Shown here: piece by piece, positions 1 to 64,000 of the stretch
Layout of the letters: each line of letters begins with the position of its first letter
How positions within the stretch are numbered: the stretch's first letter is position 1
Assembly (NCBI GenBank): GCA_008632985.1
Contig: QPGO01000106.1
Location: 1-64,000, forward strand
DNA: 64,000 nucleotides
Source: Psammoneis japonica
Lineage: Eukaryota
Direction of reading: 5' to 3'
Translations under genes and position numbers: made by a program
The notes under the pieces: model-generated
The model's input: the letters and a program-made list of their open reading frames with translations, nothing else
Databases searched by the model: none
What the model was told of the DNA's origin: nothing

Positions 1-3000
1 TTGCGTTCACTCTCAAGTTCGAATGACCGATTAGCGTCCATGTGTGACTGCAATCGCCAAACGTTGTTACTAGCAATTGTTCTTCCGGATCTGGAAGGAA
101 GATTTTACCCTGTACCAATTGCTGGAATGTAACAGAGTTCGGACCAGCCAAAACCTGCGTTCCTCCGACCAACACAGAAGCCATGAGGGCCGCACCGCTG
201 GATGAATAGTCCAGCTCGAGTACGTTCAAGTCGAAGCTAAATGCGGCTGGCGACTGAACGCCCCGGAGTTTAACATTCTTGCCATCTGCGAGCCTTCTGC
301 CAGATGAAACCGTATCAACGAGATCTCCAATCTGTTTCACATTGGAGAAAGAGCTGTACGCGCTGCCAGAGACGCATTCAATCACTTCATTTCCAACACT
401 TCCTGATAGACTCGTACAGTCCAGCTCTCCGCTGTCACTCGCCGGGAGTTCAAGTATGCCACTTGACACATCATAGGAAGCAAGTGGCCCGGGTAGCTCT
501 GGTGTGAAAACGAGGGGGTCAATCAGATCCGTCGTGAATGTCTTTTTGTAGGAGAAGAGGGTTATCTTCCCAAAGAATAAATCGATAATGATTCTGATAT
601 AAATGCTGAGAAAGACATTGATTCGCAGACCGAATTCAAACCATTTTAATGCGGTGATAAACCCGATGTAAGCAATTCGTAAGGGCGCACAAGGCCCCCA
701 GATTGCTGGGGATTTGGGTCGAACAAGTCAATGGTGGCAATAAACTTGATGCCGCCCGACACACCGATCTCAATGAAACCTGCGCTTACACTAACCATGA
801 CAGCCACAATGCCCGTAAGGGTAATCATCGGCTTGTCTACACCATCGAATACATCAATCAAACCAAAGCTATTGAGGGCCTTCTCAGGCTTGTCCTGCTC
901 AATGGCCTCGCGGATGCCTTTGGAATCCAGGGCAAAACCAACTTCGAGTGTTGCAACGAATTCAAACGCAATCCCAAGCCTTGCTGTGGGGGGAGTGTAC
1001 CTGGACAATCATACGAAAATAATTCTGAGGTATATCCAAACAAGGGATATCTTGTTGGGGGATGCATGGTCGTGGAAACTTACACAGTTGTCTGGAACTC
1101 GCACTCGAATGCAAAGTTTGCGTTGGGTGGCTCAAATGCAATCAATTTCTGACAGCAAAACAAACGCAACAACTTTGAGTGAGTTTCTCAAACACGCGAA
1201 TCTATGAGACACTCTTGTTCCCTGCATCAACTCACAATGTCTTGGCCTTGGAGCAGGCCGAGGGCATCAGTTGGTCTGGAGAGTGCGGGGAATTCAAGCC
1301 CCGACACCGAGTTGGCTTGGCATGAAAGCCTTTTTGATTGGCACACGAAGTCAGCTGTTGAACAGTCTTGAGCGAGGACACTTGTACAATTCTCATCGGC
1401 TTGACCCTCGAAAATTGGATCAGAAAGCGCTCCTGCACAGTTGAATCTGTCCAGGAGATCGCGTTTGTCTGCCAAGCGAAGTCCACCGCTGTCGCCAAAA
1501 GATTCGAATGACGAAATGACTGACTCGCAGATCTTGGCAATTTCACGAACAGTCTTTGCTCCCGAACGCTTTCCGATGAAAATTTTGGCAATGTCCAGTG
1601 CAGTGATGTCTCTCCCAGCAATATCTGAAATGCCCGGAATCCGTTTGCCGAGAGGCACAAGTGGCCCCACAACATTGTCCAACATGCCATCTGAACCGTC
1701 TGCTGCTTTCCCAAGGACAGACTTGACGAAATCCTTGAGCGCCTCTAAATTGAGTTCTACTTTGGTGAGCTGAGCAACTGTCTCAGAGCACTCGTTGTCA
1801 AGAAAATCGACAGCCACTCGATCTGCGTTGTTCAACGAGCCGGTCTCAATTCGGCACCGAACTTCAATCCCGAAATCTAGTGTCGGGATCCAGGATTTGA
1901 TTTCGTCAAGCCCCTCTCCTCCGATCGACAGTTTGACATCTGATTCAAGAGCTGCACCAGCAAGGGCTCCAACCTTGAACAAGTCACTCTTGTCACGTGT
2001 CCTTCGAAAGTCCGTTCGAGTCAGAGACCCACCCTCTCCCGTGGACATGTCCACGAAGACACCCGCACCAACCGTCAAATTCGCACGTTTCATTTCCGCC
2101 AACAAAAAGAACAATGAAGCAGTTGTGTCTTGGTCCTTGACTTTGAGTGTTGCATTGACAGCCAGCTCTGACTCATCCGGAACGGCAGAGAGAAAGAACC
2201 CTTCTTCGTCGTCGAAGCCAAGTGCCAGTTGAAAACGCCACGAGATTCCAAGAGAAGGCGATGTGTCACCAGTCTCTGACGACATTTCCAGTGGAAAGTC
2301 AATGCCATCACCCAGGCCAAAGTCAAGAGGAAACTCTTGCTCAAATTGCTGGCCAAGGGGCATCTGCCAGACAACAGACGTTGGGTCGCCAGTGGTGCAG
2401 CTCACGACGCCTTCCACACCACGAGCAAAACATTCGTCAGACACGGTGTTTTCAAATGGAAGGAGATCAGCCTCCTGCAGCACATCCTCAAGGAGGTCAC
2501 GAACGACATCAGCAACATTCTCTGCTGATTCAATCCTGTTCAAGGTTTCCCTGAGCTTCGGCACAACATCTCGGCGTGCTTGCGCCAAAATGTTGTTGTC
2601 TGCATTTGAACCGATGGTGCTTCCAAGTCCATTTCAAATGAAGGGGATTCAAAAATTGTCACCCCACCGTTTGTCCCAAAAATGGCATCTTTGACGGTTC
2701 TCAATGCATCGTCCAAGGCATCAACAAACTCATCTCGCAACTGAAGCAGGAGTGTCAACAGATCAGGAATCTCGTCAGGCCCACTAAAGTTGACTGTCGG
2801 GTCCAAGCTTGCAGGGTTGTCAATGAATTCATCCACGTTGTCAATGCCGAAGCTGATGTCTGCGCTAAAGTTAACAAGGGGCACTTCAAGATTAATGTCG
2901 GCACCAATGGATCCTGAGAATGATGCACCAAGTTGACTGACAAGAGCAACTGGATCAATGAGCTGGCACCTTCCATTGGCAAGTCCGACTTCCAGTTTTA

Positions 3001-6000
3001 GAGGATCTGCTCCATCCCCGATGAAAAATCCTGCATCCACCTTTGCGCTTGGAGGTCCTGTGGAGGGCTCGAAATCCAATGTTCCGTTCGCGACAAACGA
3101 CGCGGTGAAAATCGGCCCCCCAATGATGTGAGTCTCCACTTCGAGAGTGTCGGGGTTGCAACTCACTTTCACATCTAGTCAAAAGACCAGCTCGCCATCG
3201 ATTTTGATTGTCGCATCACCATTGGATGGCAAGAGCGTCTTGGCAAAGAACTGTGGAAAATTTGAATTCGCCGTAATTTTGGAAAGGTCGACATCCAGCG
3301 ACTCCACCTCTTTGAATGTCCATCCGAGCTCAATCTCAAGCGAAAGCTCCAAATTGGTTGCAGCCATTTTGACAAGTGGTGCTCTGCCAATGCCGTCGGC
3401 AAGCAACGTCTCCAGCTTTGCTTCAAATGATGACAATGAGTTCTTGATGCTGACTCTCGTCACGTCTTCCGCAAGGAGGTCGACGATTTCATCGTTCTCA
3501 AGGGCTTTGATTTCGTCTTCCCTGAGGACGTTGACAGCATCGATGAGGACTTGCAAAAAGCTTGCTGCATCGCAAACCCTGATTCCAACAACTTGACAGT
3601 TGAGAACGAGCAGCGGAGAACACACACAGAAGACAAATGAAATGTGAGTCTGAGTCTGTTCTTGTCCTCTGTGTGGAGGGCTCCTTCTTTTTCTCTGCTT
3701 GCGTGGAATCTGACACCGGACAAAATTGTTCCCCAGCAGACCTCCAGCACACGACTTCACCGCCTCCGGTGTGAGATCTCCGACAACAAATTCCACTGCT
3801 CTCGAAAAGCCTTCAAGAACATTGGCACAGGACAAGCCTGGAATGCCTTGAGGGAGACTGACATTGAAGAGAACCGGTGGAGCACTTAATTTGCTGAGAA
3901 AGTCGACTGTGAACGGCTCGAAAATGCCATCATGCGTCTGTTCTTCAAAGTCATCGAAAGGAGGCGCTAGTCTGACAGCCCCAGAAAAGCTGTCTGCAGC
4001 AAATGCAGATGAGGCACCAAGAAATCCATCAACACACCCTTCACTTTCTGGTTGAAAGATGGATGCCACTGCCATCAGCCAGTCACAGCAAAGCAGGCAC
4101 CCGCCGGAACCAAGTGAGACGCTCACGTCTCCCACCAGCGATGCACTCAAATCTGTTCCGACCTCAACAAGACCTGGTCCAACAGTTGCGACAAGATCCT
4201 CACGCCCTTCAATCTGACAATCCGCGTCAATCAACGACTTTCGGACTGTGATGTGGCACGGCCTTCGGGACAAATCCTGGTCTTGCAGGCCGCAAACATC
4301 AGCAATGTGCTCCATCCTTCAGTCTTGTGGGCAGTCAAGCACATCCTCAAGAGTTGCAACTTTGGTTTCAGGATCCACACAGTCTTTTTTTCGCACCCAG
4401 AGTCTAACATCATTGATGGATGGATCGAATCTGATGCTCACCAAAGACTTGCCGCACTTCTTGACTGTGGCAATGCCGTCAAAGACCCTCCCAAGCCCTT
4501 CCGTGACCAAGCCACCGGCTTCGAAATCCAGCGGAATGGTGTTTCTGCTTTCCATGATTGTGCATTGAAGTCTCAGCCTGACGGCCTCTGAAGTGCACTC
4601 GTCAAAGCCCATCCCAGAGCAGGCACATCCTAAAATGACAATGTCTTCACTCAAGTTCGGTGCCAAGATGACCGTGAAATCTGCCGTGTAATCTGCTCTT
4701 TTTACAGCCACTGTGATTGAGCTCACTTCTTTTGGAGCCACTCGTCGCACGTTTTGGAGGTCACCCACGCCACCGGACATGTCAAATCGAACATTGTACG
4801 ACGAGGCACCCCTTTCAAAGGCCAAACTGACTTCGAAACAGCTCACCTGCTTTCCTGTCATTTCTGGGGTGCAGGAGAAAGGAACATTCACACATTCGCA
4901 TCCAAGGCCCATCACAGTGTCTTCAACTGTGGTGAAAGAAAGAAGGGCAACAGGTTTTGAAGTTGTTGGGAATGGTTCTCGCAAAAGAAGTGGCGCCGCA
5001 CGCGCGTGTCTCCAGCGTCACTCACTGCGAGTCACAAGATCATGAAAGGAACAGAAACGAGGAACCAAAGCCGGCATGACAGGCTGATTCAATGGAAACT
5101 CAAACATCGACGTCGGACCTTGTAGCTCGTCCAAGTCTTTGTAAAGCCCAACAAGGTGAACGTCCTTTGGTCCTGCCAGCGACCGAAGCAATGAAGACGT
5201 GGCCATCATTTTCATTTACATTTGGAGGGTGAACATCAATGACAACGTCACAATCTTGGTCAAAGCAGCCGAAATGTTCCCCCGCATCGTCATCAAATTG
5301 GCAGAAACAAGAGCCGGGCAGCTGAGGGTTGCATTCTAGCGCACAAACCGCAACACTGCAGTCTGAAGCGTTGATTCCATCAAAGAGAATCTTTCTGAAT
5401 GCAAAACTGTTCTCTGGAGGGCTCATGGGCAGTTGAAAGGCACACACACCGTCTGTTTCTTTCGCCAGTTCCCGAACAGACACAGGATCGTCTGGATCAA
5501 CTGCCAATTTGGTTTCCACAAAGTGGAGCTCCAATGTCTTGCCAGGAGCAAAGGTCCTTCCGCTGCTTTCATTAAATGCAAGCAAAGAATTAAGGAACAG
5601 ACTTCGACTGGGGCGGAGGTCGAAATCCTCAACCTTTGAGAACCACGGGAAAAACTGATCAATGAGTGGGGAGCCTGTTCTGAGAGTTTCGCCAAACGAG
5701 ATGTTCGACAAAGGCAAACTAAGCTGCGTCGCTTCGTTCACCTGGGTCCGAGTGAAAGTGCTGTCCATTGTGCGAAGAAGTGAAAAGGCGTTCTCCGGGC
5801 AAAATGCCAAGAAGTCATCGATGTTCGTCAAGTCCGGAACGTCGAGTTCCGCAGTTGCCGAATGGATGTCGTCCTCAATGACACTGAACGCAGCAGTCTC
5901 GTCTGATCCAGTGAGCTCTGCACCCAGAAAGGGGTCGCCAATGGCACAAGTTCCCTCAACACTGTGCTCTCCAATGGCATTGAGGTGGAAGGATGTGCCT

Positions 6001-7206
6001 GTCTTGATGGGCCGTCCGATGACATCCTCGTCACAGTCATCGCCACCACACTCAGTGAGATTGAATTCAGCCGACGCAGTTGCATTGTCAGCCGTGCAAG
6101 CCAAGTTCAACATTCCCAAAAACAAATCCAGATCCGGCATTCCGCCAAGCTTCAGTGATGCTTCAATGGGGGCAAGCAGGACAAGGTCTGGAATGAAGAA
6201 CAAATCAGCGACGAGGCAAGCGCCAAAATTGAGGTTTGAAGACACAACTTTGATTGCGTCCATCTCAAGGACAATGCACTCCCCAACAGCATGGAAAAGC
6301 CTGGCACCATCCAGACTGGCAGTTCGATCAAAATCAATCGAAGAGCAAAAATTGACAATGGCACCGGCGCCGGGACCATTGGGTCACCGTCACGGGTCCT
6401 TTGGTCCCATCGCAGCCAACTGCCAATGGATGAGAGTCAACAACCCCATCTCTTGTCAGGCAATTGGCCAGTCGCTCTTCCAATGCCCTGCAGGTGATTT
6501 CAGCATCCCCTGTTTCCTGTGTTGTCTCCTGGACAAAATTCCTTAAATCAACCACAGCATCTGTGCTGCTGTTCTGTCCTCCAATTACGGCATTGATCGA
6601 TGATCCTACAAAGGGGATTTTCCGGTTCAGGATTTCATTGTCTCGAAAGACCTCCACCCTTTCGCAGAGCTGGTTGAAAACTGGGTCGAGTGCAATGAGA
6701 TCCACAACACAGGCGTCCGCCACAGCACTGGGTGAAGATGAAGGAGAAGATGACACACTCGGTGGTGGTGAAGGAGCGGGTGTGACAGTGGGTGCTGTTG
6801 AGGGGGCCGATGTGTCAGTGGGCGAAGTTGAAGGAGACTTTGACACACTCGGTGGAGGTGAAGGAGCCGGTGTCACGGTGGGTGCAGTTGAAGGAGCCGA
6901 TGTGTCAGTGGGCGAAGTTGAAGGAGCAGATGACGCACTGGGTGGAGGTGAAGGAGGTGATGTCACCACGGTGGGTGCACTGGTGGAGGCTGGTGCTCCT
7001 CCGTCGAGGAGGCGAGACCAGTGCTCAGCATCTTCCGTTTCCAACAAAGCCTTTTCGTTCTTGTCATCCTCTCTGGATTCTTCTTGCCCTGCTCTTCTGA
7101 AAAAGCGAGACAAGTGATCAGCAGCCGATGCGACGTGAACAAACGACGCCACCGCCACCACGACAAGGATGACACAGGAAAACGCACTGAACTGTGAGAG
7201 CCTCAT
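1..7206 (-). pseudogene. Disrupted gene for a giant secreted protein (>2000 aa; signal peptide, Pro/Ser/Thr repeats, acidic beta-rich body resembling RTX/hemolysin-associated giant proteins); continues off the window
   Basis: ATG 7206 with hydrophobic leader MRLSQFSAFSCVILVVVAVA. Consecutive minus-strand ORFs 6334-7206, 5100-6263, 4319-4984, 3179-4315, 2540-3172, 1227-2588 and 646-1008 are broken by frameshifts/stops. Introns 1149-1235 (GTGAGT..CAG), 1001-1083 (GTAAGT..CAG) and 3592-3702 (GCAAG..AAG). Family assignment is recalled from the GVSGGI..IDLFDP..GLVR motif, not searched. Confidence 0.7.
6739..6957 (-). repeat. 90-bp coding tandem repeat (~2.4 copies; PSTSPTDTSAPSTAPTVTPAPSPPPSVS)
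   Basis: TGAC(A/G)CACT..GGTGG recurs at 6751, 6841 and 6931. Confidence 0.9.
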
Positions 7207-7918
7207 GGTGTCACAGCCTGTCTGTCAGAGAGCGGTGTTGCAGAGAAGTTCGCAAGCAAGCAGCAACGATGAACGTTCAGAAATGCAAATGATCTGTGAT
7301 CTTCTGTTGACAGTTGATTGACGCTTTTGTGAAAGGATGAAAAACTGCGTGTGCGTGGACTCCACGCAAGATAAAATTTCAAACTTGGGATCCACATGTC
7401 ATTTGTTGAGGAAGATTCAAAGATGCTCAGGAAATCTTTCTTCAACAAACAAGACTTGCGAACAGCAATGATCTCCAATGCAATTTCAAAACTTGATCAA
7501 GCATGCCCGTCGGACTTCCAAATTCGGCCCGTCATGTGTGTGTGCAACGCGGCCATCAGTGGTTGGTGATTGCACGCAGTGGATGCCAAAAAGGGTGGTT
7601 GTTTCTAGGTCGACACCTTTGCCATGGAGAGGTGATGAGAGGTTGGATGCGGGTGTGTTGGCGAAAACCCATTTTGGTTTCCAAAGCAAAAACCCATTTT
7701 GGTTTCCAAACATGGCCAACCACTGCATTGTGACAGGCTGAACTTCCGTCCATGGGCATTGCCAAACCTTCGTGGAAAATTCACATTGCTCCCGTTGCCA
7801 GTCATGGGGTTGGTGGCTGTCATGGATGCACAGTGTGCATGTGAGTGAGCGTGGTTTGAGTGACTGGAAGTTGGGGATTTCAAGTGGGAATTGTTGCATC
7901 TGCATGAGTTGCCAATCT

Positions 7919-8178
7919 GGCCTGTCCCAGCTCCAGGTGCTCCGCGCGGGTTCGATTCCCATCATTTGGAAATTTGTGCATTTAGCGCAATTAACTTTTT
8001 CCAAATCCGTTTTTTGCCAAATCGAAGGGCAAGTGTGCACTTTGCATGCATTTTCGGGTGTACACTCACCTTTCGATTTTCGAAACGATCAAAATTGAAG
8101 GAGTTAATTGCGCTAAACTGCGCAGAAAATCGGCCTCTCGCGTGATGAAAAGCAGAGCACCTGGAGCTGGAACAGGCC
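7919..8178. mobile_element. 260-bp MITE with 24-bp TIRs and a 4-bp TSD (ATCT)
   Basis: TIR GGCCTGTCCCAGCTCCAGGTGCTC (7919-7942) vs GAGCACCTGGAGCTGGAACAGGCC (8155-8178), 1 mismatch. ATCT at 7915-7918 and 8179-8182. Inner inverted repeat TTTAGCGCAATTAACT/AGTTAATTGCGCTAAA. Absent from duplicate copy B (empty site ~9455). Confidence 0.9.
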
Positions 8179-8488
8179 ATCTGTCATTTTGCACGTCATC
8201 GGGAAGAATGTGGCACAGCATGAGATTTGCTTTTTTCTGTTTCAGAATGCCATCGGTCATGTCAGGCTTGCGCTCTCATGTTCAGAAGAAAGCAAAATGA
8301 GCCACACTCAACAGGTGCATGACATGTTGCGGATCCTCACAGCACAACAGCAAGCCTTGCAGCAAGTCGCTCCTCTCTCCAATCTCAACCCTCACATGGA
8401 AGACTGTCAGTGATGCCCTCATCCTGCATGTCAGGCAAAACTTGCAGGACACATTGCTCTGTGAGATGTGCAAGGAGGTCACCGTGTG

Positions 8489-8962
8489 TTGTCCACTCTC
8501 TCGAACTGCTCCCCGGCGCTGTTCTCCACAATCAAAACACAATTCTTCTCCTGCATCAATGTCTCGTTTGGCACAAAAGCACATTTTGCCATCTCCAAAC
8601 CATTGCTTTTTCCACACTGCACATTTGCATCTATTTTGGAATTCATCCATCGTGCCAACCCGGATTTGTCAGCGTCCATGCCATCATGGTGCACTGGTTC
8701 GCCCCGCTGCACTGCCACAGACATTTCAGCAACATGACGACCTCAACCGTTGGGATGCCGTTCAAAGCACTTGTTTTCATCAAGTTGCTCACCCTTGTGC
8801 TTGAACAGACAGGATCCAGATTCTGTGTTGCAAAGTGCAAAAACAGCCCACCATTCCCGCTCCGTCAATTTTAGATTCTTGAGTTGCAAATTCGGACTGG
8901 GGAAATGGATCTCGAATCTCATTAAATGACATGCAATGTGAGACAAGAGCAATGCCAACAAG
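8489..8962 (-). pseudogene. Hypermutated partial copy of the SET-domain gene
   Basis: KMCFCAKRDIDAGEELCFDCGEQ and SCLFKHKGEQLDENKCFERHPNG align to KMYFYAKRDIDAGEELCFDYGEQ and SYLFEYKGERLDENEYFQRYPDG; frameshifted. Confidence 0.92.
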
Positions 8963-9745
8963 CAAAAAACACAAGAAATGGAGGCCAAGATTTTTTTCAT
9001 TTCTCTCTGTGGCCATGACATGTGCAGAGTGGCTTCAGGGTGCAGTGTTGAGGTTTTAGATGCTGAATTTGGCATTCCATTGAACTGTGCCACCTTGTGA
9101 TGTGAGTGAATTGCGGGGCCATGAGAAAATTATCCAGTGTTCAGTGGATGCCAAAAAGGGTGGTTGTTTCCAAGTCAACACCTTTGCCATGGAGAGGTGC
9201 TGAGGTTGGATGCGGGTGTGTTGGCGAAAAAACCCATTTTGGTTTCCAAACACGGCCAACCGCTGCATTGCGACAGGTTGAATTTCCGTCCATGGGCATT
9301 ACCAAACCCGCGTGGAACATTCACGTCGCTCCCCGTTGCTCGTCATGGGGTTGGTGGCCGTCATGGATGCGCAGTCTGTATATAAGTAAGCGTGGTTTGA
9401 GTGACTGGAAGTTGGGGATTTCAAGTAGGAATTGTTGTATCTGTATTAGTCGTTATACTGTCATTTTGCGTGTTATCGGGAAGAATGCAGCACGGTATGA
9501 GATTCGCCTTTTCTGTTTCAGAATGCCGTCGGTTAGGCTTACGCTCTCATGTTCAGAAGAAAGCAAAAGCACCACTCGACACTCGACGTGTCGCGGATCC
9601 TTACAACACAACAGCAAGCCTTACGAGTCCTCTCTCCGCTCTCGACCCTCGCATGGAATACTATCAGTGATACTCTTGTCCTGTATGTCGGGTGAAACTT
9701 ACAGGACACACTGCTCTGTAAGATATGTGAGGAGGTTACCATGCG

Positions 9746-10447
9746 TTATTCACTCTCTCGAACCGCTCCCCAATACTGTTCTCCATAATCAAAACACAAT
9801 TCTTCTCCTGCATCAATATCTCGTTTGGCATAAAAGTACATTTTGCCGTCTCCAAACCGTTGTTTTTTCCACACTACATTTGCATCTAGTTTGGAATTCA
9901 TCCACCGTGCCAATCCCGATTTCCTAGCGTCCATGCCATCAATATACACTGGTTCGCCCCACGGTACTGCTGCCGGTATTTCAGCAACATAACGACCTTG
10001 ACCGTCGGGATAACGTTGAAAGTACTCGTTTTCATCAAGTCGTTCGCCCTTGTACTCGAACAGATAGGATCCAGAGTCAATGTTGCAAAGCGCGAACAGT
10101 CCCATGCCCGCTCCGTCAATTATAGATTCTTGAATTGCAAATTCGGATTCGGGCAATGGATCTCGATTCTCATTAAAAGACATGCTATGTAAAACAAGAG
10201 CAGTGCCAACAAGAGTGGTAGAACTCAAAATGAAAAGTGGATCAAACATGTCGGTGGCAATTCCAACCGTCAGCGCGGCAACCGCCATTCCTCCACCCGC
10301 AATCAATCCGGTTTGTTCCAAACGACGAGATGCAGATACTTCGAGTTGAAGAGGCTTCTTCTTACTGCCATCGTGTAGATGCTGTGGTGGTGGTAGGGCC
10401 AACAGACAAAGGATGCCGCTAGTAGCAGCAGCACAGAACGGCGCCAT
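9746..10447 (-). CDS. SET-domain protein lysine methyltransferase-like, with N-terminal hydrophobic segments
   Basis: GAGMGLFA, ARWMNS and ELCFDYG SET motifs; ATG at 10447. Confidence 0.88.
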   Translation of the reverse strand: MAPFCAAATSGILCLLALPPPQHLHDGSKKKPLQLEVSASRRLEQTGLIAGGGMAVAALTVGIATDMFDPLFILSSTTLVGTALVLHSMSFNENRDPLPESEFAIQESIIDGAGMGLFALCNIDSGSYLFEYKGERLDENEYFQRYPDGQGRYVAEIPAAVPWGEPVYIDGMDARKSGLARWMNSKLDANVVWKKQRFGDGKMYFYAKRDIDAGEELCFDYGEQYWGAVRESE

Positions 10448-11528
10448 TGTCGACTTCACCGTATCATACAGTACCGCCGCCCGGTATGATGTGTGACTAA
10501 CGCGTATTCCACTTTTCGAAATTATGCTTACCTACGTGTACGAAGACACCATTTTCTCAACATTTAAAGAAAAAAGCTTTTTTCCGATTTCAATTGACCT
10601 GGTAATTCAATAATGAGTAAGAAAAATGCAAAATAGCAAGAAAGTGTCGTTAGTTGCTTGCGTTCGAGGTGAATGTCATCATTTTTCGCGGCAGCAAGTT
10701 GTGAGCTCCACAAATCATACACTTACTGTTGTCTACCATCAAATAACGCACACCATAATCCATATTATCAATGAAATGGACCATCCGTTGCTTGGCTTGA
10801 TGCAAAAGACAGTGTATGACACGCAACAGCCCCATTTCGATTGATGCAGAAATGTCGGCCGCAGACAAATGGTTCAAATGTCGACATGAAACTAAGAGCC
10901 GGTGTTCCTCGTCAGGGCTTTTAACATGGTCGAAATGCTCCCTATATAAGTGTATGAAACGAGCGTATCAAATAAAAAGAACGAGTCAGTGACACGAAAG
11001 CGCAATACGATTGTATCGCGACAGCACACGAAAAAGAGCAGCGGATGGTGATGCAATTACAAAATCCATTTTTGACCTTTCGATTGAGCAATTACCTTCA
11101 AACAAGCGATGAAAATAGTTTCTATATGATGGTAGAAACTATTCTAAAGCACTGATGTTGTTGAAAGGGTTTGGCAATAGCATGAAATGCCGTTCCGATT
11201 CTCATGGTGAGTGGCGTTCGGAGGGTGTGTGCGCATACGTGACTGAATGAGTCCCGCCTAACTTCATGCAGCCGCCGCGCGCTCGCCTCAGTCCTTATGA
11301 TACAGTAATTTTAATTTTAAGATATATTACTGTATTTATAAAATCATTCACTTCCAACGGACACCTAGTTTCCTAACAAGACTGGATCAAATGGTCGCGG
11401 TTAGCATAGAATAGAGTCAGTCGTGTATGCGTACTGCGGTTTTGCATTACACGGTATTTTGGGTTAGGTTTTCGTTTTTGGAGATGCCGCTGCTGCGAGT
11501 TACCTAATATATCGTCATCTCTCTCGTT

Positions 11529-16170: not shown

Positions 16171-16416
16171 GATAAGTGAAATACAACTTTTGATTATGAA
16201 AATTGATGGGCATTTCCTATTACAGTATTATTTTTTCCCGCCAAGCAGTTTTGGATCTTGCGTGATGCGGCATAACTCGCGACCAACCTGAGCTGTTCTC
16301 GTCGTCGCGCCACATTCCTCATTCATTCAACTCACGTGTGCTGCATCTGTCTCATTAAAATATAAGTTTACACCTTTATTGGCATTCACTTGATCTGACT
16401 TGCAACAAACATATTC

Positions 16417-18290: not shown

Positions 18291-18295
18291 TTTTA

Positions 18296-26630: not shown

Positions 26631-26639
26631 AGAGTCTGA

Positions 26640-26790
26640 AAGTTCCAACAGTTTGTGTGAATTTTTGTTGAAAGCATTTTTGTTGAAACTCAAACTTTCA
26701 ACAACAAAACTGTTGAAACTTTGAAGTTTCAACAACTCGAACAAAGTTTCAACAGTTTTTTGTTGAAACTTCCAAGTTTCAACAGATTTT
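26640..26790. repeat. Array of AGTTTCAACA/TGTTGAAACT motifs (second cluster at 25449-25495)
   Basis: About 9 motif copies in alternating orientation here and 3 in the left cluster, flanking the transposase remnant. Confidence 0.8.
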
Positions 26791-30860: not shown

Positions 30861-30899
30861 GGCAGACAACAGAGACGTCACACTCTCTGCCACTGCAGA

Positions 30900-52200: not shown

Positions 52201-52895
52201 TGCATTTCAGTGCAGTGGGCATGCATCTGGGATTTTTCAAAAAATGATGGCAATGCACAAACACCCACCCTCACTCCCACAGATCCATCCTTGAGCTGAG
52301 CCACAAATTTGGCATTTCCCCACACTTTTTCTTGCTGTTTTGTGCTTCATCATGATTTCAGCCTCCTGACAGAAGTGGGGGCATGTTTGTGCTCTGCAGC
52401 ATTTGGGTCACTTTTGCATGTGTGACCTCATGTCAGGCAAGAAGCTTGAGCCTCCATCCTTTGCTTTCATTGTCAGTGCCATGCTGGCATTGATGAAAGG
52501 ATGCAGCAACTGTGAGCTTTCTCTGGCCCTTTTGAAGCAATCACGTGAGTGAAAGAGAAGCCAAAGAAAGATGGAAATGGCGCCATTTTGATTTGATGCG
52601 TTGTCATTTGTCATCTGGTGTCAACACATTGCAAGTGCCATGCACTCTGTTTTCCATGCAGTGTGGTGGAAATGTGCGTGGGGGGCTGGCACAGTTTCTG
52701 TCCGCACCAGGTGATCTCCAGACTGCCCACTTGAGCACTTGAGGACACCTGTGCCAAAGCATCAACAGAGTTGCAACTGGGCTGGCAGGTGGAGTTTGAG
52801 GTCACAAACCTGCAATTGGCAGAATTGCATTTCACCACACAACACACAGCACAGCACATGCAAACTGCAACATGCGTTGAGATGTGCGTGCCACA

Positions 52896-53803
52896 GACTT
52901 GCTCCAGACTCAGGTGCGCTCACGCATGAAAAAATGACCCTTTTCGCATGAAACGCGTGGCCCACACTTGCGGCGCCATTTTCGACAGCAAAAACATGAC
53001 AATTTTCAAATGTGTTGTTGTGGGCACACACAGAAAGGTCTTGTGCGTGCACCCATGCATTCGAAACTGTGGATGGACTCAGTTGTCAGTCGCTAAATTG
53101 TGCCGTGAGTTGAGAGCTCTGTTTTCCGAGGAGCAATTTGTGGATGTCTCAATGTGTGAAGAAACGTGTAAAATGTCATTCTTGTGTGTAAATTGACCCT
53201 TTAACATGACACAATCAATCTTTGGTTAAAATGCGCGATGCAACTGTCGTTCAACAGATCGAATGAAACATGCGTTGATTGACAAGTTTCTGATGATGTG
53301 AGAAGAAGGGCAGCTCAGCCCACGCAGTGGCATCGACTTCGGACCATTTTTCACTGTTTAAAAGGCACAAACGATTGACGCACTTCAATCAGTTGAACAC
53401 CTTGAGGAAATGCACATGGCGATGGCAAAGAAATGGTCCTCAGAGGCAAATTGTGAGTGAGTTGAGGCTCAATTGTTGTTGCTGACAGATTTGGCATTGT
53501 TGTGCCATGCTGCAGCCTGCAACAAGCATTTTCACTGTTGTTGTTGATGCGTCAGACTACATCAAATGCGGAGGTCCTCGTCATGACACTGAATTTTCCA
53601 TGAGGCTGAAAAAAGTGGGCCGTCATGGTCACTGAAAGCCATGGCCAGTTTGGCTGTTTGTTTGTTCGAGTTCATTCTGTTCATTTTGCTTGCAAGCAAT
53701 TAACGGTCAATGTGATGAAACATGTGCAATGTTGAATAAGCATTGAATGTCATTTTTTCTGCGAAAAGGGGCATGTGCGCACCACCTGAGTCTGGAACAA
53801 GTC
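52896..53803. repeat. Diverged inverted-repeat pair, probable old TIR element
   Basis: GACTTGCTCCAGACTCAGGTG (52896) vs CACCTGAGTCTGGAACAAGTC (53783-53803); CCCTTTTCGCA / TGCGAAAAGGG inside. Confidence 0.55.
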
Positions 53804-56800
53804 CACACATGTGTGTCCACACATCAACCAAAATTGTGCTCCAATCGTGCGTCAATCATGGGTTCGCACGAAGGGCAGATCGATCACACAGAAGTGGTCG
53901 GATGTCGAGAATCGCAAATGCAATCATGCGATGATGTTGACATCTTGTGTGTCAACATCAATCACATCTGGACAATCTGTTGTCATGATCATGTTCTCCG
54001 AAAGGCCTTTTGTCTGTGGGAGCAGTGCAAAAGGCTCAGGCCATTGAGAGCCCGTTCGGAGAAACCCAAAATGATTGCGCAGAAACAATTCTCATGATTT
54101 TCACTTTTCAAACTTCATTCTGCTTTTGTTTGCACTCATTCTTTGAGCACAGTGCAAAACAACTCCACTCTTTCATCAAGCACAAGAAGCTGCAAGAACA
54201 GCCACCAGGTCAGTTGAGTCAATGTCCCCATCAGTGTCCAAATCAAAGATGGCACAGCATGGATTCTTGCAAAGCACAATGGGACAGACTCCATTTGAAC
54301 ACTTTCCTGTCCAGCACTTTTGAAAGTCAGATGGGCGGAGACATGTCCATCACCATTCATGTCCTCAGGGGTGCTGTCACACTCAAAACTGTTGGAAATT
54401 TGAGTCAGTTCCCACCCTCCTTCTCCAGCTCCTTGTCAGTTGGATCTGTCATGAGAGTTGCAGCATTGGCCACACCAAAATTGAGAGCTTTGTCCATTGC
54501 AACCATGGTGCACGTTCTGCAGCTTCCACAGTTGCGCAAACCACCCTTTTCTGCTGGAACAGCTTCACTTTTGCTGCCGGGAAAGAAGACATGCCAGACC
54601 GTCTGTCAGTGGCAGTGATGTTTTTTTTTTTCTGTTCAAAAATCTTGACACCAAAAAGGACAGCAGCAAAGTCCAGAAACAAGGTGTCCCTTGAGCAATT
54701 TGCAACAGCACCCAATCTGTTTGAGCTTTCTAAGCTCCCGATTGAATGACACACATGTTGCATGACTGATCTTTGAACACAAACATAAAAAAAAACAATC
54801 AGGGACAGTTGAACAAAACAGTTTTTTTTTAACAACTGCCAAGTTTTCAATGCCAAACATTCACTTTCCACTCACCCCAACTGGCACCAGCAACAAACTG
54901 AATTGAGTCCTTGCGACTGAACTGAGCCCTCCTCGTCAGACCCATGTGTTGAGTTGATCACTGCTCAGAGCTTGAGAGAGGCTGCCGATGAAGCCTCCTC
55001 TGTCATGTTTGGTGTGTGACAAGCTGATGGCGCAGGTGAATTGTCAGAGGTCCACAAAATTGAGTTTCCTGTTCAAACAGTTTTCCCTCGTGGTGTGCTC
55101 GTGCACACACACACAAGGAGCGCACTCACACTCAGGGGAAAAATTGTGGTCATTTTCTCAGGGTGGCCAGCAAAATGACTTGCTGCAATTTTCAGTCAGC
55201 TCTCCAAAATCTGACAGCCTTGAGGGTGTCAATGCAAACCAGCCCTGTTTCCAGACATTCTCAATGATGCACATGTCCAGTGTCCAGTGCCCCAGCTGCA
55301 AGCAAGCAAAGGAGGAGCCAGCCATCAATTGTGTGGAGCTGTTCAAGCAAAAAAATTTGCACACTCCTGTGGTGTGATTTTTTTCATTTTCAGGCATTTT
55401 TGGCTTTTGCGGTGGTGTGAAAGCCACCAACTGCACACTTGTGGCTCATTTGAGCCTCAAAACCACTTGCAATCATTGGTGATTTTTTTTCAAAAAGACA
55501 TGCATGGAATCTTCAACAAAAAAAACCTTGGCCTTTCTCACAACACAATGTTTTGAAACAAGGTCATTTGTGTCGGCAGGCAGATGAGTTTTCAAGCTGC
55601 TCTTGCTCACTTGGTTGGCCACTTCATTGTTTTTTCTCCAGCACTGCTGCACACAGTGGATTGTTGGCCAGACTCTGTGCTGCTTTTGGCAAGCACCAAA
55701 GCTTTGCACAGAACCACTGCTGTGCAACAAAAAGAGCAGCCACGCCTTTCTCATAAGAAGCAAGGCAGTGCACAAGGCAGCACAAGAGCAGCTTCTCCAA
55801 GAATGGGGAAAACATGCCGGTCCAAGTTGTGGGCAAGGTTTGCACCAAACAGCTGCACCCAGAGACCAGCACTGTGTGACAAGTGCAATGCCAACTTGTT
55901 TGAGAGGAAAAAGCAGACCAGCTGATGCTTCTTGTCAACAACAAGATGTTGAGTGCATTGACAGCATCTGTTTGTGTGGCACATGTGCCAATTTGGAGCA
56001 CACCAGTGCAGCAAATTTTGCCACATTGGTGCGATGTTGTTGCTTCAACTTGGACACGCTGAAAATTCTGCACATCCAAATTTGCCAATGGCGGTGATGA
56101 TTGTGGTGATCATGTTGAATGCAACAGTGATGCTTGCACAGACTGTGTTTGTGTTGTTCTTTCAAATGCATGGCACAAAGGGAGAGCAACCAGATTTTGT
56201 GTCTTGGATGAGCGCTGGTGAGATGTGACAACAGTCAGTGCAAAACCACACTAGAGGCTGCCAGTGCAGCTTTGCCAAAAGACAGTTTTAAATGAGTGTT
56301 TTTGGATCAAAAGCAACAAACAAAACAATGTTTCCTTCAGCTTTCACATGGAGTTTTGAAAATGAAGAATCTCATGGAAGCTTTTGCATGCACACATCAA
56401 GTTTGCATCCTGCATTCGTTGCATGTTTTCTGCTTCTTTGAGTGCAATGGGCATTTCTGAAATTGTTCTCTGACACTGGCTCTAACTGACACATTGGCAG
56501 TTTAAAAGGGCACGTCCCCGTTGCCACAAGAGTGTTGTTTTTGCAGACTCTCTCGGCACCATACTTTCAACGTCCTCGTCCCGTTTTCTGCTGCTCCATG
56601 GTACGATTGCAGAGAAAGCAACTCTCAGCAAAAAAAATTGAGAACACAGCGGCAAAGCAACAGCAATGCCAAAAGTCTACTAAAAATCGTCTCATTCAAA
56701 AAGTATGTTTTACGATACGAAAATGTGTATCCAAACTACCTATATATTCTTTTCTGCAGCGTATTCACCGGCTGCTGCAGGCTCTCGTTGGGTTGCCTCC

Positions 56801-60431: not shown

Positions 60432-62879
60432 GTTATATTCTTTAGCTAGTATGTACTCGATAATTCTCGTGTGTTGTTGTTGTTGTTGTTGCGAAGCGAG
60501 AAAGGGAAGAAAAATGAGGCTGACATTCATCGGAGGGTGGCGCACGCATGGGTTGGTTTTTCGCGCCCAAAAATCAGAAACGGAATCTGGAATCTCCATT
60601 CACAGACATTGGAGAGAGCACATCATGGTCCATCGTTCATTCTTGTCCGAAACTGTACGAGCAGTGAGGCGTTAGAGCACCTGAGAGCGCTTTCTCCTTG
60701 ATGAATGTGTAACTCACATTAACCACATCATTCCTGTGTTCCCTTTGCGCATTGCAACAGGGTTTGTTCTTTTGCCTGCTGCTCTTCTTTGTCAGAGAGC
60801 TGCGCTGCGCCCCGTGCAGTGTGTGGCAAGAATGAGAGCAGCGTGCAAGGTGGTGCCAGCTCTTGTTGTTGTGTGCCACAAGAAACATGTTGAAATCTTG
60901 CTTTTTTGCTTTTTTTAGGGAGATGAAATGAAAACGTTCACAGCCATGTTGCGTCCCCTGGTGCTTGCTCCCTGTTCTGACTGTGTGTGTTCTTCTTGAT
61001 TGGCCACAGCCCAAAACCACTCTGCACCACTTTGTGCTCCAAGGCAGTTCTTTCATTGTGACTTTTGACAACTCCTTTTGGAGCCACAAAAGAATGTTGT
61101 CTTGTGTGTTGCAGCCACAGCTGTTGTGCTTTTTTTGTTGGTCGTGTGCGCAACATGTTGCAGGCACTTGAGGTGCCTCCCGAGCTGGGTGTCTCAACAA
61201 GCAAGAAGCGGAGCTCACAAATGTCCACTGGTCAGTTTTTGCCAACTGCTTGCAGCCCTCAAATTTGCTTTGATGAGGTGGACAACAAACAAGAGCCTTG
61301 TCATCTCAGAGATGCCCTGACAAAAAATCAAGTTGGCAGCTGCTGCCATGCTTCTGGGGCTGGGCAGCATTTTACAAACAAATTGAGAGCACCAAGGTTG
61401 TGGGGAAAAATGAGTGAAAAAACACCAAAAATCCATTGCAGCTGCCCGCACGGAGTGGCGGGCCATGTTGTTGCAGGCCAGAGCACAAAAAGCATGTTCT
61501 TGCACCTCATTGGAGCAGCTGCATTTTTCATCTGTGGCAATGAGGTGCTGTGCCTGCACTGCTGGAGAGATGTTCTTGTGACTGGTCAACAACCAGCTGG
61601 AGCAGCAGCACCCACTCAAAATTTGTTGCACTTGAGCTGGTGCACAGCGCTGCACTTGGTGCACACATCTTGATGCTCGTTCTTCTTGGGCAACTTGTTC
61701 CCGCCGCAGCTTGCCAGCAGCAGCAGTTTGCAACAGCGGCACTTTGGCTGTGCAGCTCACACTTTTCACCTCCTTGCACAGTCGCCATCTTGCTTTGAGC
61801 TGCGCAGCTTTGCAAGGTGCACCAGGAAGAACAGCTGCTGCTGTTAAAGCAAGGGCTCTGCCCCAGGGACCTCTCCATGGCAAAGCATTTTGTTTTTTGG
61901 GAAACACGACAGGAGAGAAACTGTGCCACACATTGGAGAGGGCACAACATCAACCAAGAGGCCACGTGGTTGGGAAATCTGCACCTGGTGCAATTGGTGT
62001 TGGGCACAGGCAGAATCCCACAGGTTGTTGCAGTCAGCACTTCATTGTGAATTGCTGATGACTCCATTTGACAAAACATTCAAAATGGCCCTTTGTGTCT
62101 TGTCATTCCATTGCCTGGCCATGCGCGCACCTGCCACGCAAAGACTTTGAGGATTTTATGATGCCTTCTTTTTGCTGCAGCACAACAACGCTTCATGTTT
62201 GTGCCCTTTGCACAAGCCCTTGCAATGACTGAAGGCGCGGTTCCAATTGCAACATTGTCACACCACTGCAGCCGCATCTCTGCTGCAGCAGATGGAAAGC
62301 AGTCGCACAGCACAGCACAGCACAGCAGTTGGTTGTGAGTGCCTGCCGCAGCCCCGTTTGTTGTCCAACGGTCATCCAAAAATCGACATCCACCAACACC
62401 CATCACCTCACAATTTCGAATTTGAGTCAGATCGAACTATCCATTTGTTTTGGTTTGAACGAACAATGAAGCTCTCCTCTTTCAAGACTCTGTTTGACGG
62501 GCTCCAGTCCTGGGCGGGACTTTTTGTGACATTGGGCCCGCAGAATTCTACGTGCGAGCTCCGCATTGCGGGAATTTAACCAATGGATGTTTTTGTCTTC
62601 AACATCAAACAAACGACCAAGTTTGTGGTGCAATTGTGACCATTGCCACTTGGTGTTTTTGCAAACACGCCTGCCCTGCGCCATTCTTAAGACATTTGCG
62701 AATGGCGCAGAAGAAAAAAATGTCAAAAGTTGTTGGACGGATCGCTCAACAAGTGTGCCACAAAATGATGCAAAATTTCACAAAAGTCATGTGCCTTTCT
62801 GCGTGCGCAACATGCGGTGCGATCCAAAAAACTGTCGATGTTGCAGTTCAGCAGCACGAGGTCCCACCCAGAGCTGGAA

Positions 62880-63510
62880 CGCGTCATTCACCTTGCTCAG
62901 TGCGGTTGCTTTCGCACAGGCCAATGGTGAGCAGACTTCTTTTGATCCCTTGTGCGCGTTCCCAACCCATGGCTGCGGCAGCCACGGTGACTTGTGATGA
63001 CCCATCATGTGGCTCATGCACTTGTGTGGATTCTTTCTTGCATGCCATGGAGATCCTGATGAGTGCTCCAGTGGTCCAAGATGCCCCATTGCCCGCGGCA
63101 ACTCCTGCAGGCGCGGCAGCTCCTGCAGAGGCAGTGGAAGCTCCTCCGGAGGCCGTGGAATGTCAGACGGCAGGCACCAAAGTCATGAGCGCTGGTGGCG
63201 GCAGCCCAGAAGGGATTGAGGAAGGAGCAGGAAAAACAAAGGGTGCTCGGGACAAGCCAGCCAAAAAGGCGGAAAAGAAGGGCGGCAAAGAGGAGAGAAA
63301 AAAGAAGAAGGCCGTCAAGAAAACCATCAAGAAGGCAGTCAAGAAGGCTGTCGCAAAGGTTGCCAAAGTGGCACCCACCACAACAGATGCTGCTGCCAAG
63401 AGGACAGAATGAAAGGAGCATCGCAAAGAACGCAGGAAGTGCAAAAGGTTGGGCTGCACCAAAGCAAGCACCGACGAGGCTTGCATTGCATGCAATCTCA
63501 AATGCTTGAA
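62880..63510 (+). pseudogene. Hypermutated paralogue of the Lys-rich gene at 46487-47239
   Basis: CDDPS..CVDSFLHA..PAEAVEAP..KKAVKK..TDAAA then CGA->TGA stop, followed by CKRLGCTKASTDEACIACNLKC. Confidence 0.85.
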
Positions 63511-64000
63511 CCGCCAGCTGTCTGTGTTCACAGAGAACAGCGTCTCTAAAAGCACAAAGCTGTGAAAATCTTGTCACAATGAAGTGTGATGAGTGGACTC
63601 ACTCCTGCACCAGCTGGAGCATCAACTCCAGCCTTTCCTTTGTAACTCGAGATGTTCAAGACATGCAGAGGAAAACTGCGGTCTCTCACACAGTTCAGCT
63701 GGACAATTTCAATGATTGCTGCGAGGCAGGCTCGAATTGCCAGTTCGCTGCGGTGACTGCACTCCTTCGAGTTGAGATCAATTGTGTTCTCTTCTCTCGA
63801 AACTGGGGCTGCGGCAGTGGGCTCGACTGCACTTGCTGCTGGGAGGAGCTGAGGCAGCATTTTGTTTGCTGCCCTGTTCAGTTGCACATGTCATCCCTGC
63901 TGACGCTGCGTGCCCAATGGAAACAACTTTGCACGTTGGGAACAACATTGCATTGTGCTCTTCTGTGGCGAACTCTCCACACAAACAAATCGCACGGTGC

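Follow-up and report, generated by a model that had tools for sequence, protein, structure and literature searches.

In ascomycetes, RIP is premeiotic and depends on RID/DIM-2; it changes C to T chiefly at CpA, which raises TpA, and hits both copies of a duplication. In animals, ADAR and APOBEC edit nucleic acids of viruses or retroelements; their targets are RNA or reverse-transcription intermediates, and the resulting changes cluster by strand. A natural A:T>G:C process acting at a defined dinucleotide in chromosomal DNA has one prior report, a 2026 preprint on a chlorarachniophyte. The preprint text describes mutation-accumulation lines of Bigelowiella natans in which two integrated viral regions gathered 231 mutations, all but one of them (230) A>G or T>C, with the GC-biased mutations all on TpA and with a de novo rate in the region that was raised about 1000-fold and was episodic (bioRxiv 10.64898/2026.01.13.699255). 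The same text reports 124 TpA-poor, CpA+TpG-rich clusters genome-wide, discusses ADAR/APOBEC editing and presents an ADAT2-like candidate, an ADAT2/TadA-like DNA adenine deaminase being the proposed agent there too (bioRxiv 10.64898/2026.01.13.699255). CpG, context, boundaries, diatoms and stramenopiles gave no hits in a term search of the preprint text (bioRxiv 10.64898/2026.01.13.699255). For diatoms, the text of PMC9998398 describes repeats methylated via DNMT5a and mentions RIP, and a literature search found no diatom report of TpA hypermutation. The present analysis concerns one 64-kb stretch of the genome of the diatom Psammoneis japonica (64,000 bp), termed the window, to which all counts refer.

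Results

Two-State TA Mosaic

Islands were called with a two-state HMM on TA positions, giving six low-TA segments that together cover 37,160 of 64,000 bp (58% of the window). The segments, to which no strand is assigned, and a tandem array within one of them are as follows.

1082..9378, island 1, TA o/e 0.08, CG o/e 0.71 (HMM, TA/CG positions, pair alignment)
14198..16172, island 2, TA o/e 0.03, CG o/e 0.30 (HMM; single-copy by read depth)
21992..32978, island 3, TA o/e 0.06, CG o/e 0.49 (HMM; TA/CG positions)
37908..41367, island 4, TA o/e 0.08, CG o/e 0.62 (HMM)
39702-40191, 181-bp tandem array within island 4
47581..56482, island 5, TA o/e 0.05, CG o/e 0.36 (HMM)
60462..64000, island 6, TA o/e 0.07, CG o/e 0.51 (HMM), continuing past the window end

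A preliminary description of the window had proposed a mosaic of six sharply bounded islands, and the HMM segments agree with these within tens of bases in most cases, with poorer agreement at the left edges of islands 1 and 6. The left edge of island 6 is ambiguous, with a small TA cluster at 60656-60720, and TA/CG positions together with the pair alignment place the true right edge of island 1 between about 9180 and 9300. The initial ~350 bp of island 3 are without TA yet rich in CpG. TA occurs 155 times in the 37,160 bp of the islands compared with 1,168 times in the 26,840 bp outside, a 10.4-fold difference in density. The islands have TA o/e of 0.03-0.08 compared with 0.55-0.66 outside, CG o/e of 0.30-0.71 compared with 0.87-1.06, TG and CA o/e of 1.46-1.82 compared with 1.11-1.36, and a GC content of 0.48-0.52 compared with 0.45-0.48, with the gain in TG+CA o/e in the islands equal to the loss in TA+CG o/e.

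The distribution of TA o/e over 128 non-overlapping 500-bp windows is bimodal, with 71 below 0.2, two at 0.2-0.3 and 55 at 0.3 or above. Among 100 first-order Markov simulations of the window no more than 22 such windows fell below 0.2, and the longest TA-free gap reached at most 571 bp compared with 1,943 bp observed. The two-state mosaic of six islands is confirmed by the HMM, the TA density, the bimodality and this Markov control. The borders are step-like, and their sharpness is borne out by the TA positions themselves, for example at the left edge of island 2, where a TA is found every 10-40 bp as far as 14197 and the next is at 14944.

Reads and an Independent Metagenome Contig

Read contigs from run X1, which is one sample of one study and may be the sample behind the assembly, have a depth of about 60 and match positions 11246-15123 and 15110-17000 with 0 differences, crossing both borders of island 2; the island parts examined are single-copy at this depth. 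The same kind of island occurs in L007, a metagenome contig for which blastn finds no match in the window; it occupies a segment at about 301-3019 (TA o/e 0.09, CG 0.29, TG 1.69, CA 1.87) with a sharp edge at 3020, and 10 of its 19 residual TAs are YTAR, the same sparing as in the window (see below). L007 is the only one with an island among 15 loci (110,895 bp), and no paralogues of its island were found among these loci or in the window.

These data bear on a sequencing or assembly artefact, in which modified bases would be miscalled and TA read as TG or CA. The pattern is limited to DNA that is likely modified, and the library type of X1 is not on record, both of which are compatible with miscalling. 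The signature is nevertheless not attributed to base calling because the k-mer contigs agree base for base across borders and the unrelated metagenome assembly shows the same signature. Per-position miscalls should also turn CG into TA, which is not seen, and the island copy of the SET gene described below bears transversions, indels and a MITE insertion besides the TA changes. An artefact of this kind is close to refuted.

Paralogue Pairs and the Direction of Change

Two island segments copy nearby normal genes, and the direction of change can therefore be read from the following pairs.

7577..8962, minus strand, pseudogene, a mutated tandem duplicate of the SET gene's 3' part and of downstream DNA (pair alignment; SET fragment in Pfam)
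9142..10531, minus strand, unmutated parent, a SET-domain gene (ORF 9746-10531) and downstream DNA with normal TA (Pfam SET, E 3.1e-17)
62362..63992, plus strand, older mutated copy, in island 6, of the Lys-rich gene region 46033-47347 (64% identity)
46033..47347, minus strand, unmutated partner of the island-6 copy, a Lys-rich gene region with normal TA

Pair 1 aligns 9142-10213 of normal DNA with 7577-8962 of island 1 at 86% identity. The normal copy has 47 TAs, of which 19 read TG and 18 read CA in the island copy (37/47) and three are retained, with about 94% of TAs altered compared with 3.3% transversions (35 of 1,071 aligned sites). Of its 60 CGs, 15 read TG and 17 read CA in the island copy (32/60), with 22 retained. 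TG is unchanged at 69 of 77 sites and CA at 74 of 85, indicating that CA and TG are the products and not the substrates. None of the 10 Tyr codons of the SET gene survives in the island copy, where they read Cys in five cases, His in four and Arg in one. Pair 2 (46033-47347 and 62362-63992) likewise has 47 TAs in the normal copy, with 17 changed to CA and 16 to TG (33/47). The parent copies at 9142-10213 and 46033-47347 are normal in both TA and CG. The initial ~40 bp of the SET parent copy may be hit as well, and judged from the alignment the mutated zone may leak by a few tens of bases.

Sequence Context and Strand

The TpA context of the changes is near-exclusive, with A>G in pair 1 at 40 of 92 As that follow T (0.43) compared with 12 of 166 after A and 5 of 136 after G. 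A dependence on the tetranucleotide is seen in the TAs that remain in the islands: 85 of 155 are YTAR compared with 171 of 1,162 in normal DNA (odds ratio 7.0, p = 2.6e-26), and 10 of 155 are RTAY compared with 378 of 1,162. RTAY is thus nearly erased and YTAR largely spared, with a 3' preference of T >= C > G > A, which does not fit what is known of ADAR or ADAT substrates. A context model predicting which base pair is changed held for YTAY (TG 13, CA 6) and failed for RTAR (TG 8, CA 6). The two strands are hit roughly equally and there are no same-strand runs, with 21 runs compared with 19.5 +/- 3.0 in shuffled data, and 18 compared with 17.5 +/- 2.8.

Repeats and the Targeting of the Changes

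Two multi-copy repeats were recognised by read depth, one of them in normal DNA; neither has an assigned strand.

7918..8179, 262-bp MITE with 28-nt terminal inverted repeats, high-copy family (inverted repeats, depth, parent alignment gap)
10606..11300, multi-copy repeat in normal DNA with TAs retained (depth 223-1,072; TA o/e 0.61-0.84)

The MITE is inserted in the island SET copy and absent from the parent. Its word depth is 8,689-21,097, where single-copy DNA has about 60, and it has loose ends at 7919 and 8178/8179. The MITE may have escaped mutation by inserting later, but of its five TAs four are YTAR, which is spared anyway, leaving GTAC at 8061 as the only one in the preferred context. 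Other genomic copies of the repeat at 10606-11300 differ from it mainly by TA>TG or TA>CA, and among the variants in other genomic copies of the two repeats (X1) 17 of 20 are A>G or T>C, 14 of these 17 being at TpA.

A process like RIP, in which duplicated DNA is sensed by pairing and then mutated by a chemistry other than that of fungal RIP, would account for the fact that both traceable island pieces are duplicates of nearby genes and for the apparent leakage of a few tens of bases into the SET parent. It is nonetheless quite unlikely, given that the partners are unmutated over about 1 kb each, one of them at a distance of just some 180 bp from the copy. The change from TA to TG or CA removes TpA where RIP creates it, and same-strand runs are lacking. 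The text of PMC9998398 describes enzymes of the DNMT4 type, related to fungal RID, in diatoms, which is in favour of such a process. Targeting by domain is preferred to targeting by homology because the partners are unmutated, the island parts examined are single-copy at depth 60 and the repeat at 10606-11300 keeps its TAs in genic DNA.

Gene Content of the Islands and Intervening DNA

Pfam families above cut-off were found in five ORFs, namely SET, two sulfotransferases, a diatom pyrenoid shell protein and 60KD_IMP, and all five fall outside the islands, in keeping with the preliminary placement of the intact genes in normal DNA. The closest hit to the pyrenoid shell protein (PyShell) has 65% identity. 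Stop-to-stop island ORFs of at least 70 amino acids (n = 268) were scanned against Pfam and none matches a transposase, reverse transcriptase or integrase family, so that the transposon remnants previously assigned to the islands are not upheld. F-box_4 and ThrE matches among the island ORFs were below threshold and were set aside. Most island ORFs are without a Pfam match, and the identifiable content is limited to the two copies of neighbouring host genes, one nearly open gene of a host family that is almost without Tyr and one RusA-like ORF. The Pfam ORF scans found no deaminase gene within the 64-kb window. The latter two island features are as follows.

1227..7224, minus strand, nearly open gene of about 2,000 codons, almost Tyr-less, of an unnamed family (translations, homologues)
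22265..23338, plus strand, RusA-like Holliday-junction resolvase ORF with no Tyr, in island 3 (Pfam RusA E 1.4e-6; phrog_140 E 5.8e-11)

A signal peptide, a P/S/T repeat and an extensive acidic region mark the gene at 1227..7224, which has 2 Tyr in about 2,020 residues and 121 homologues (best E 3.5e-105, 51% identity). At all three family columns with a Tyr majority (blastp) the residue is changed, reading C, C and H, with other aromatic columns largely kept (Phe in 22 of 30, Trp in 4 of 4). A MAFFT alignment of the ORF at 1230-2633 has only two Tyr columns, which read M and C. Other members of the family, at 15 loci, have normal TA. A word-based homology search with the island ORF at 5100-6383 found nothing.

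Run X2 resembles RNA in its behaviour: it shows a GT..AG joint at 12004>12102, and its contigs fall on 9430-10518, 11503-14041 and 16528-16899. None of the island parts within 7001-17000 is covered by X2, a blank that is not evidence of silence.

Foreign origin, with the islands being an integrated virus or horizontally acquired DNA that is intrinsically poor in TA, is suggested by the RusA-like ORF, whose family is common in phages, by the many island ORFs without a Pfam match and by the viral targets described in the B. natans preprint text (bioRxiv 10.64898/2026.01.13.699255). Against PHROGs, 15 island ORFs yielded nothing beyond the RusA-like match and a weak hit to one family whose function is unknown. 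Against a foreign source, two pieces of the islands were copied from host genes close by and have demonstrably converted TA sites, the family of the island-1 gene has its normal-TA members at 15 loci, and the viral contigs scanned have no relatives of the island-1 family or of the RusA ORF. This origin is very improbable.

Border Profile and CpG Decay

The first 100 bp inward from the borders take TA o/e from 0.75 down to 0.11, a step that is partly built in because the borders are defined by TA. CG o/e declines through 0.98, 0.93, 0.63, 0.55, 0.50 and 0.38 over about 400-600 bp, placing the CpG gradient 100-400 bp inward of the TA step. The two signals also separate between islands, with island 1 being TA-free though its CG o/e is still 0.71. 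CpG depletion is accompanied by a gain of TG and CA, as seen both in the island CG o/e of 0.30-0.71 and in the 32 of 60 CGs changed to TG or CA in pair 1. Most simply, this profile would reflect a second, spatially graded process in the island cores, namely CG>TG/CA through deamination of 5-methylcytosine in methylated DNA. CpG decay accounts for the smaller half of the signal only.

The presence of ordinary CpG decay alongside the TA loss raises the alternative of slow passive decay without a dedicated mutator, with silent chromatin carrying a base modification, or being deficient in repair, so that TpA becomes a spontaneous hotspot as 5mCpG is, and the islands simply being old. Candidates for such a modification are oxidised thymine (5-hydroxymethyl- or 5-formyluracil) or N6-methyladenine. 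The random strand hits are as expected for many independent events, and the base-pair change alone is silent on whether the A or the T was damaged. Several features nevertheless make passive decay unlikely. All six islands are saturated for TA loss (o/e 0.03-0.08), against a CG o/e that spans 0.30-0.71, about 94% of TAs in pair 1 are changed compared with 3.3% transversions, and only 2 of the 128 windows are at 0.2-0.3, leaving no intermediate state. The island-1 gene is TA-free yet almost open and has near-normal CpG. In B. natans, moreover, the same signature arises, according to the preprint text, within a 378-day experiment and in some lines only (bioRxiv 10.64898/2026.01.13.699255).

Discussion

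The reading that probably holds is that the islands are the product of domain-restricted, TpA-specific A:T>G:C hypermutation, with a separate graded CpG decay. The islands would be non-functional nuclear DNA, made up of dead gene copies and other DNA between gene clusters, on which a region-restricted mutator would have run nearly to completion, changing A:T to G:C at TpA so that TA becomes TG or CA. The two processes would jointly leave CA/TG as the sink state. Targeting is probably set by the chromosomal domain or the chromatin state and not by homology between sequences, and the chemistry may be one in which an enzyme deaminates adenine in DNA to hypoxanthine. A candidate agent would be an ADAT2/TadA-type enzyme resembling tRNA adenosine deaminases, or another enzyme of the deaminase fold, as proposed for B. 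natans, and the role would be the inactivation of silenced or invading DNA. The preliminary description had seen in the mosaic a genome-defence footprint on heterochromatic domains, with the recognised transposon remnants lying in the islands. A defence-like process is a fair reading because the pattern is a mutational footprint whose direction is known from the paralogue pairs; the transposon part of that description is not supported.

A wider proposal, which is tentative, is that diatoms have a natural, domain-programmable 5'-TAY DNA adenine mutator that permanently erases TpA in whatever DNA comes to lie in a silent domain and is shared with Bigelowiella. The presence of the same system in the rhizarian Bigelowiella would make it an ancient genome defence of the SAR supergroup, and the island edges would mark a chromatin boundary at near-nucleosome resolution that is distinct from the cytosine-methylation boundary. 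Were this so, over half of the local chromosome would already be dead DNA free of TA and of Tyr codons.

Occurrence of this footprint in a diatom, where it is at saturation, would widen the range of the system to a major group of marine primary producers. As diatom model species are transformable and CRISPR-editable, the enzyme and the targeting signal would be open to direct tests. TA o/e taken together with CA+TG o/e would provide a simple marker, read from sequence, of silent or dead DNA in such genomes. Two layers of silencing could likewise be told apart from sequence alone, by the distance at which the CpG gradient follows the TA step. TpA erasure would also explain the failure of homology-based annotation of repeats and pseudogenes in these genomes. 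A natural DNA adenine deaminase, if it is the agent, would be of interest to base-editing research.

Among the known systems, RIP resembles the present case in that hypermutation by transitions in a particular context inactivates duplicated or invading DNA, and in that the mutated DNA forms blocks of deviant composition next to normal genes, with the mutation spilling somewhat over the edge. It differs in that here TpA is erased by A:T>G:C, the partners are untouched and strand runs are absent. Decay by 5-methylcytosine deamination is matched by the CG>TG/CA changes in the island cores, with CG o/e down to 0.30, but its profile is graded and inset 100-400 bp from the TA step, and it represents the smaller half of the signal. 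ADAR and APOBEC share the use of deamination against selfish nucleic acids, and ADAR also favours a 5' U. In contrast to these, the changes here affect a contiguous chromosomal block including a tandem gene copy and intergenic DNA, fall on both strands at random and reach about 94% of TpA compared with 4-7% of A after A or G, with no reverse-transcriptase domain in the 268 island ORFs.

The closest likeness is to B. natans, where the preprint text of Mettrop et al. describes integrated NCLDV and virophage DNA with A>G/T>C at TpA only, yielding TpG and CpA, in bounded regions of an otherwise ordinary nuclear genome and in TpA-poor, CpA+TpG-rich clusters. Many of the affected ORFs are unannotated there as well, and an adenine-deaminase mechanism is proposed. 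The host is a rhizarian (chlorarachniophyte) in that case and a diatom (Stramenopila) in this one. As given in the preprint text, de novo rates were measured in B. natans, whereas the diatom footprint is read from sequence, and the targets there are viral, whereas those that could be identified here are host gene copies, with no viral relatives found among the viral contigs scanned. The preprint text gives a Rho of 0.45 for the NCLDV region, compared with a TA o/e of 0.03-0.08 here, which is saturated over 58% of the window. The diatom islands further differ in showing graded CpG decay and the rule by which RTAY is hit and YTAR is spared.

Extent, Composition, and Authenticity of the Islands

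The six TA-poor islands proposed in the preliminary description were recovered both in sliding windows and by segmenting TA positions with a two-state HMM over the whole 64,000-bp window, and together they occupy 37,160 of the 64,000 bp.

Low-TA segments (HMM)
1082-9378, island 1
14198-16172, island 2
21992-32978, island 3
37908-41367, island 4
47581-56482, island 5
60462-64000, island 6

The islands hold 155 TAs in 37,160 bp compared with 1,168 in 26,840 bp outside, with observed/expected (o/e) ratios of 0.03-0.08 and 0.55-0.66, respectively. CG is also lower (0.30-0.71 compared with 0.87-1.06), and TG and CA are higher (1.46-1.82 compared with 1.11-1.36); with the strands pooled, the gain in TG + CA o/e equals the loss in TA + CG o/e, and the remaining twelve dinucleotides shift much less (≤0.16 o/e). 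The two-state character and sharp transitions described earlier were borne out, with TA o/e being bimodal rather than unimodal (<0.2 in 71, 0.2-0.3 in 2, and ≥0.3 in 55 of 128 windows of 500 bp) and the island edges forming steps as sharp as TA spacing can resolve. The pattern is confirmed as real and far above chance expectation: the longest TA-free gap is 1,943 bp and 71 windows fall below 0.2, compared with at most 571 bp and at most 22 windows in 100 Markov simulations. Normal segment 56483-60461 has TG/CA o/e of 1.36/1.32, compared with about 1.13 in the other normal segments, and a TA o/e of 0.32 at 57501-58000; it may contain short or partial islands under the HMM resolution.

Contigs from sequencing run X1 (about 60-fold depth, a single sample from one study, possibly the source sample of the assembly, library type unrecorded) show no differences from the window over 11246-15123 and 15110-17000, each crossing island borders. 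Noisy long reads do not yield agreement this exact at such depth, and the islands are not an artefact.

Gene Content

The window is diatom nuclear DNA because of the following ORFs in the normal segments.

Genes found by ORF scan
Normal segment, diatom pyrenoid-shell protein PF25192 (E 5.8e-82)
Normal segment, SET-domain protein
Normal segments, two sulfotransferases
Normal segment, 60KD_IMP insertase

A gene at about 11508-13982 (+) has an intron seen as a 97-base GT..AG joint at 12004-12102 in run X2, which is listed as "DNA?" and behaves RNA-like. The Lys-rich gene carries short coding tandem repeats (46627-46878, units of 24-30 bp).

The transposon remnants reported earlier in the islands found no counterpart, as the 268 island-overlapping ORFs of at least 70 aa gave no match to transposase, reverse transcriptase, or integrase families, and a SET fragment and a RusA-like resolvase were the sole matches above cut-off. 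The RusA-like Holliday-junction resolvase ORF (22265-23338 (+), island 3; Pfam E 1.4e-6, phrog_140 E 5.8e-11) has 357 open codons with zero Tyr and is Cys- and His-rich; it may be of host, organellar, or viral origin. Island 4 contains a 181-bp tandem array at 39702-40191 (2.7 copies, 87% matches), and 41250-41375 matches 39437-39562 over a short inverted stretch.

Direction of Change

Self-comparison of the window shows two island pieces to be copies of nearby normal DNA.

Paralogous pairs
Pair 1 (SET gene region), island 7577-8962 and normal 9142-10213, tandem copy, 86% identical
Pair 2 (Lys-rich gene region), island 62362-63992 and normal 47347-46033, 64% identical

The islands are a mutational footprint with an established direction, TA to TG or CA. 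In pair 1, 19 of the 47 TAs in the normal copy became TG, 18 became CA, and three were kept; the 60 CGs gave 15 TG and 17 CA with 22 kept, and TG and CA were themselves unchanged at 69/77 and 74/85 sites. The 47 normal-copy TAs of pair 2 gave 17 CA and 16 TG. All 10 Tyr codons of the SET gene are replaced in the island copy (Cys 5, His 4, Arg 1), which also has an in-frame stop. A>G change per adenine is 40/92 after T, 12/166 after A, and 5/136 after G, and hits on the top and bottom strands follow each other in random order (21 runs compared with 19.5 +/- 3.0 and 18 compared with 17.5 +/- 2.8 in shuffles).

Multi-copy repeats seen in X1
7918-8179, island 1, MITE of 262 bp with 28-nt terminal inverted repeats 93% complementary
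10606-11300, normal DNA, moderately repeated, between the SET gene and the next gene

The X1 copies from elsewhere in the genome depart from the window copies of these repeats at 20 positions; 17 of these changes are A>G or T>C, and TpA is the site of 14 of the 17. The repeat in normal DNA retains TA (o/e 0.61-0.84), and therefore the state tracks location and not repeat family. The MITE, with roughly 150-350 genomic copies by read depth, has an inner 60-nt inverted pair (7981-8040 and 8058-8117), and the window copy has A at 7984 and 7993, two positions at which G is found in most of the others. Some genomic copies of the second repeat have two internal skips of 88-90 bp (joints 10764>10855 and 11141>11230). 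The islands have undergone a regional, TpA-specific A:T>G:C conversion, about 94% complete and random between strands, leaving the paralogous partners and the repeat in genic DNA untouched.

Flanking Context and Chemistry

TA loss depends on the flanking bases; with the strands pooled, the attacked base of the pair is indistinguishable in these values.

Tetranucleotide frequency, island as fraction of normal
ATAT, 0.01
ATAC/GTAT, 0.01
CTAT/ATAG, 0.03
GTAC, 0.05
ATAA/TTAT, 0.06
CTAC/GTAG, 0.08
GTAA/TTAC, 0.11
CTAG, 0.20
CTAA/TTAG, 0.30
TTAA, 0.61

YTAR (Y, pyrimidine; R, purine) accounts for 85/155 residual island TAs compared with 171/1,162 in normal DNA (odds ratio 7.0, p = 2.6e-26), and RTAY for 10/155 compared with 378/1,162. 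The loss of RTAY and sparing of YTAR thus give a minimal motif of 5'-TAY (RTA on the opposite strand). The changed base pair predicted from the flanks is right for YTAY (TG 13, CA 6) and fails for RTAR (TG 8, CA 6).

The chemistry would be adenine deamination in DNA; a thymine-side or 6mA-based route would be a possible alternative. The target of tRNA adenosine deaminases, A34, always has U33 before it, an arrangement that would fit the 5' T. The 3' preference seen here (T ≥ C > G > A) is not known from these enzymes. Targeting may proceed via domain or chromatin state, and the role may be defence.

The Tyr-less Gene of Island 1 and an Island in a Metagenome

Island 1 carries a succession of long minus-strand frames at 1227-7224. 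They encode a signal peptide, a P/S/T repeat, and an extensive acidic region, and two of their about 2,020 residues are Tyr. The P/S/T-rich stretch is encoded by a 30/90-bp repeat at 6726-6966. ORF 1230-2633 has 121 homologues (E ≤ 0.001), the top one at E 3.5e-105 and 51% identity. The three columns with a Tyr majority have C, C, and H in the window, and Phe and Trp are kept in 22/30 and 4/4 columns. TA is at normal levels in the homologous genes of 15 metagenome loci; the window gene is therefore a converted member of a family that normally contains TA. Island 1 CG o/e is still 0.71, and therefore TA loss was already saturated when CpG loss and frame decay had made little progress.

Among these 15 loci encoding relatives of the island-1 protein (110,895 bp), one, microbial-mat contig L007, bears the island signature, and it has no blastn match to the window. 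About 301-3019 has o/e of 0.09 for TA, 0.29 for CG, 1.69 for TG, and 1.87 for CA, with dense TAs from 3020 on; as in the window islands, its residual TAs are YTAR in 10/19 and RTAY in 0/19. A contig of the same organism from a second metagenome (L006, 99.4% identical) begins past the island. The L007 homologue (6129-10754 (+)) is a single 4.6-kb frame with in-frame TAA/TAG at 7530, 9147, and 9510. Introns, tandem genes, a variant code, or a pseudogene could account for these codons. Downstream, at 17719-18429 and 20155-20703, lie RTX calcium-binding repeats.

Island Borders

Aggregated over 11 borders, TA o/e is 0.75 in the 100 bp just outside an island and 0.11 in the 100 bp just inside it, a step partly built in because TA defined the borders. 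The CG gradient, which does not depend on how the borders were drawn, falls inward over the first 400-600 bp (0.98, 0.93, 0.63, 0.55, 0.50, 0.38), with TA-free, CpG-rich margins at several island starts (e.g. 21993-22333 and 37910-37990). This is read as two processes, a sharp-edged TpA mutator domain and, in the island core, the ordinary loss of methylated CpG.

Comparison with Known Systems

Diatoms methylate their repeats via DNMT5a, and RID-related DNMT4 enzymes occur widely among them (PMC9998398). Fungal RIP is a functional analogue of the islands; identity with it was rejected on two defining features, the chemistry and the mutation of both copies. A full-text literature search returned one matching report and none of TpA erasure in a diatom. 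That report (bioRxiv 10.64898/2026.01.13.699255) describes mutation-accumulation lines of the chlorarachniophyte Bigelowiella natans in which 230/231 mutations in integrated NCLDV and virophage are A>G or T>C, every such GC-biased mutation being at TpA, at about 6e-7 per site per generation and in some lines only; it gives 124 TpA-poor, CpA+TpG-rich clusters in the genome and names an ADAT2-like candidate. Diatoms, stramenopiles, CpG, context, and boundaries did not turn up in a term search of its text. The islands are best filed as TpA-hypermutation of this recently described kind, at saturation and with CpG decay overlaid, the host being a diatom here and a rhizarian alga there.
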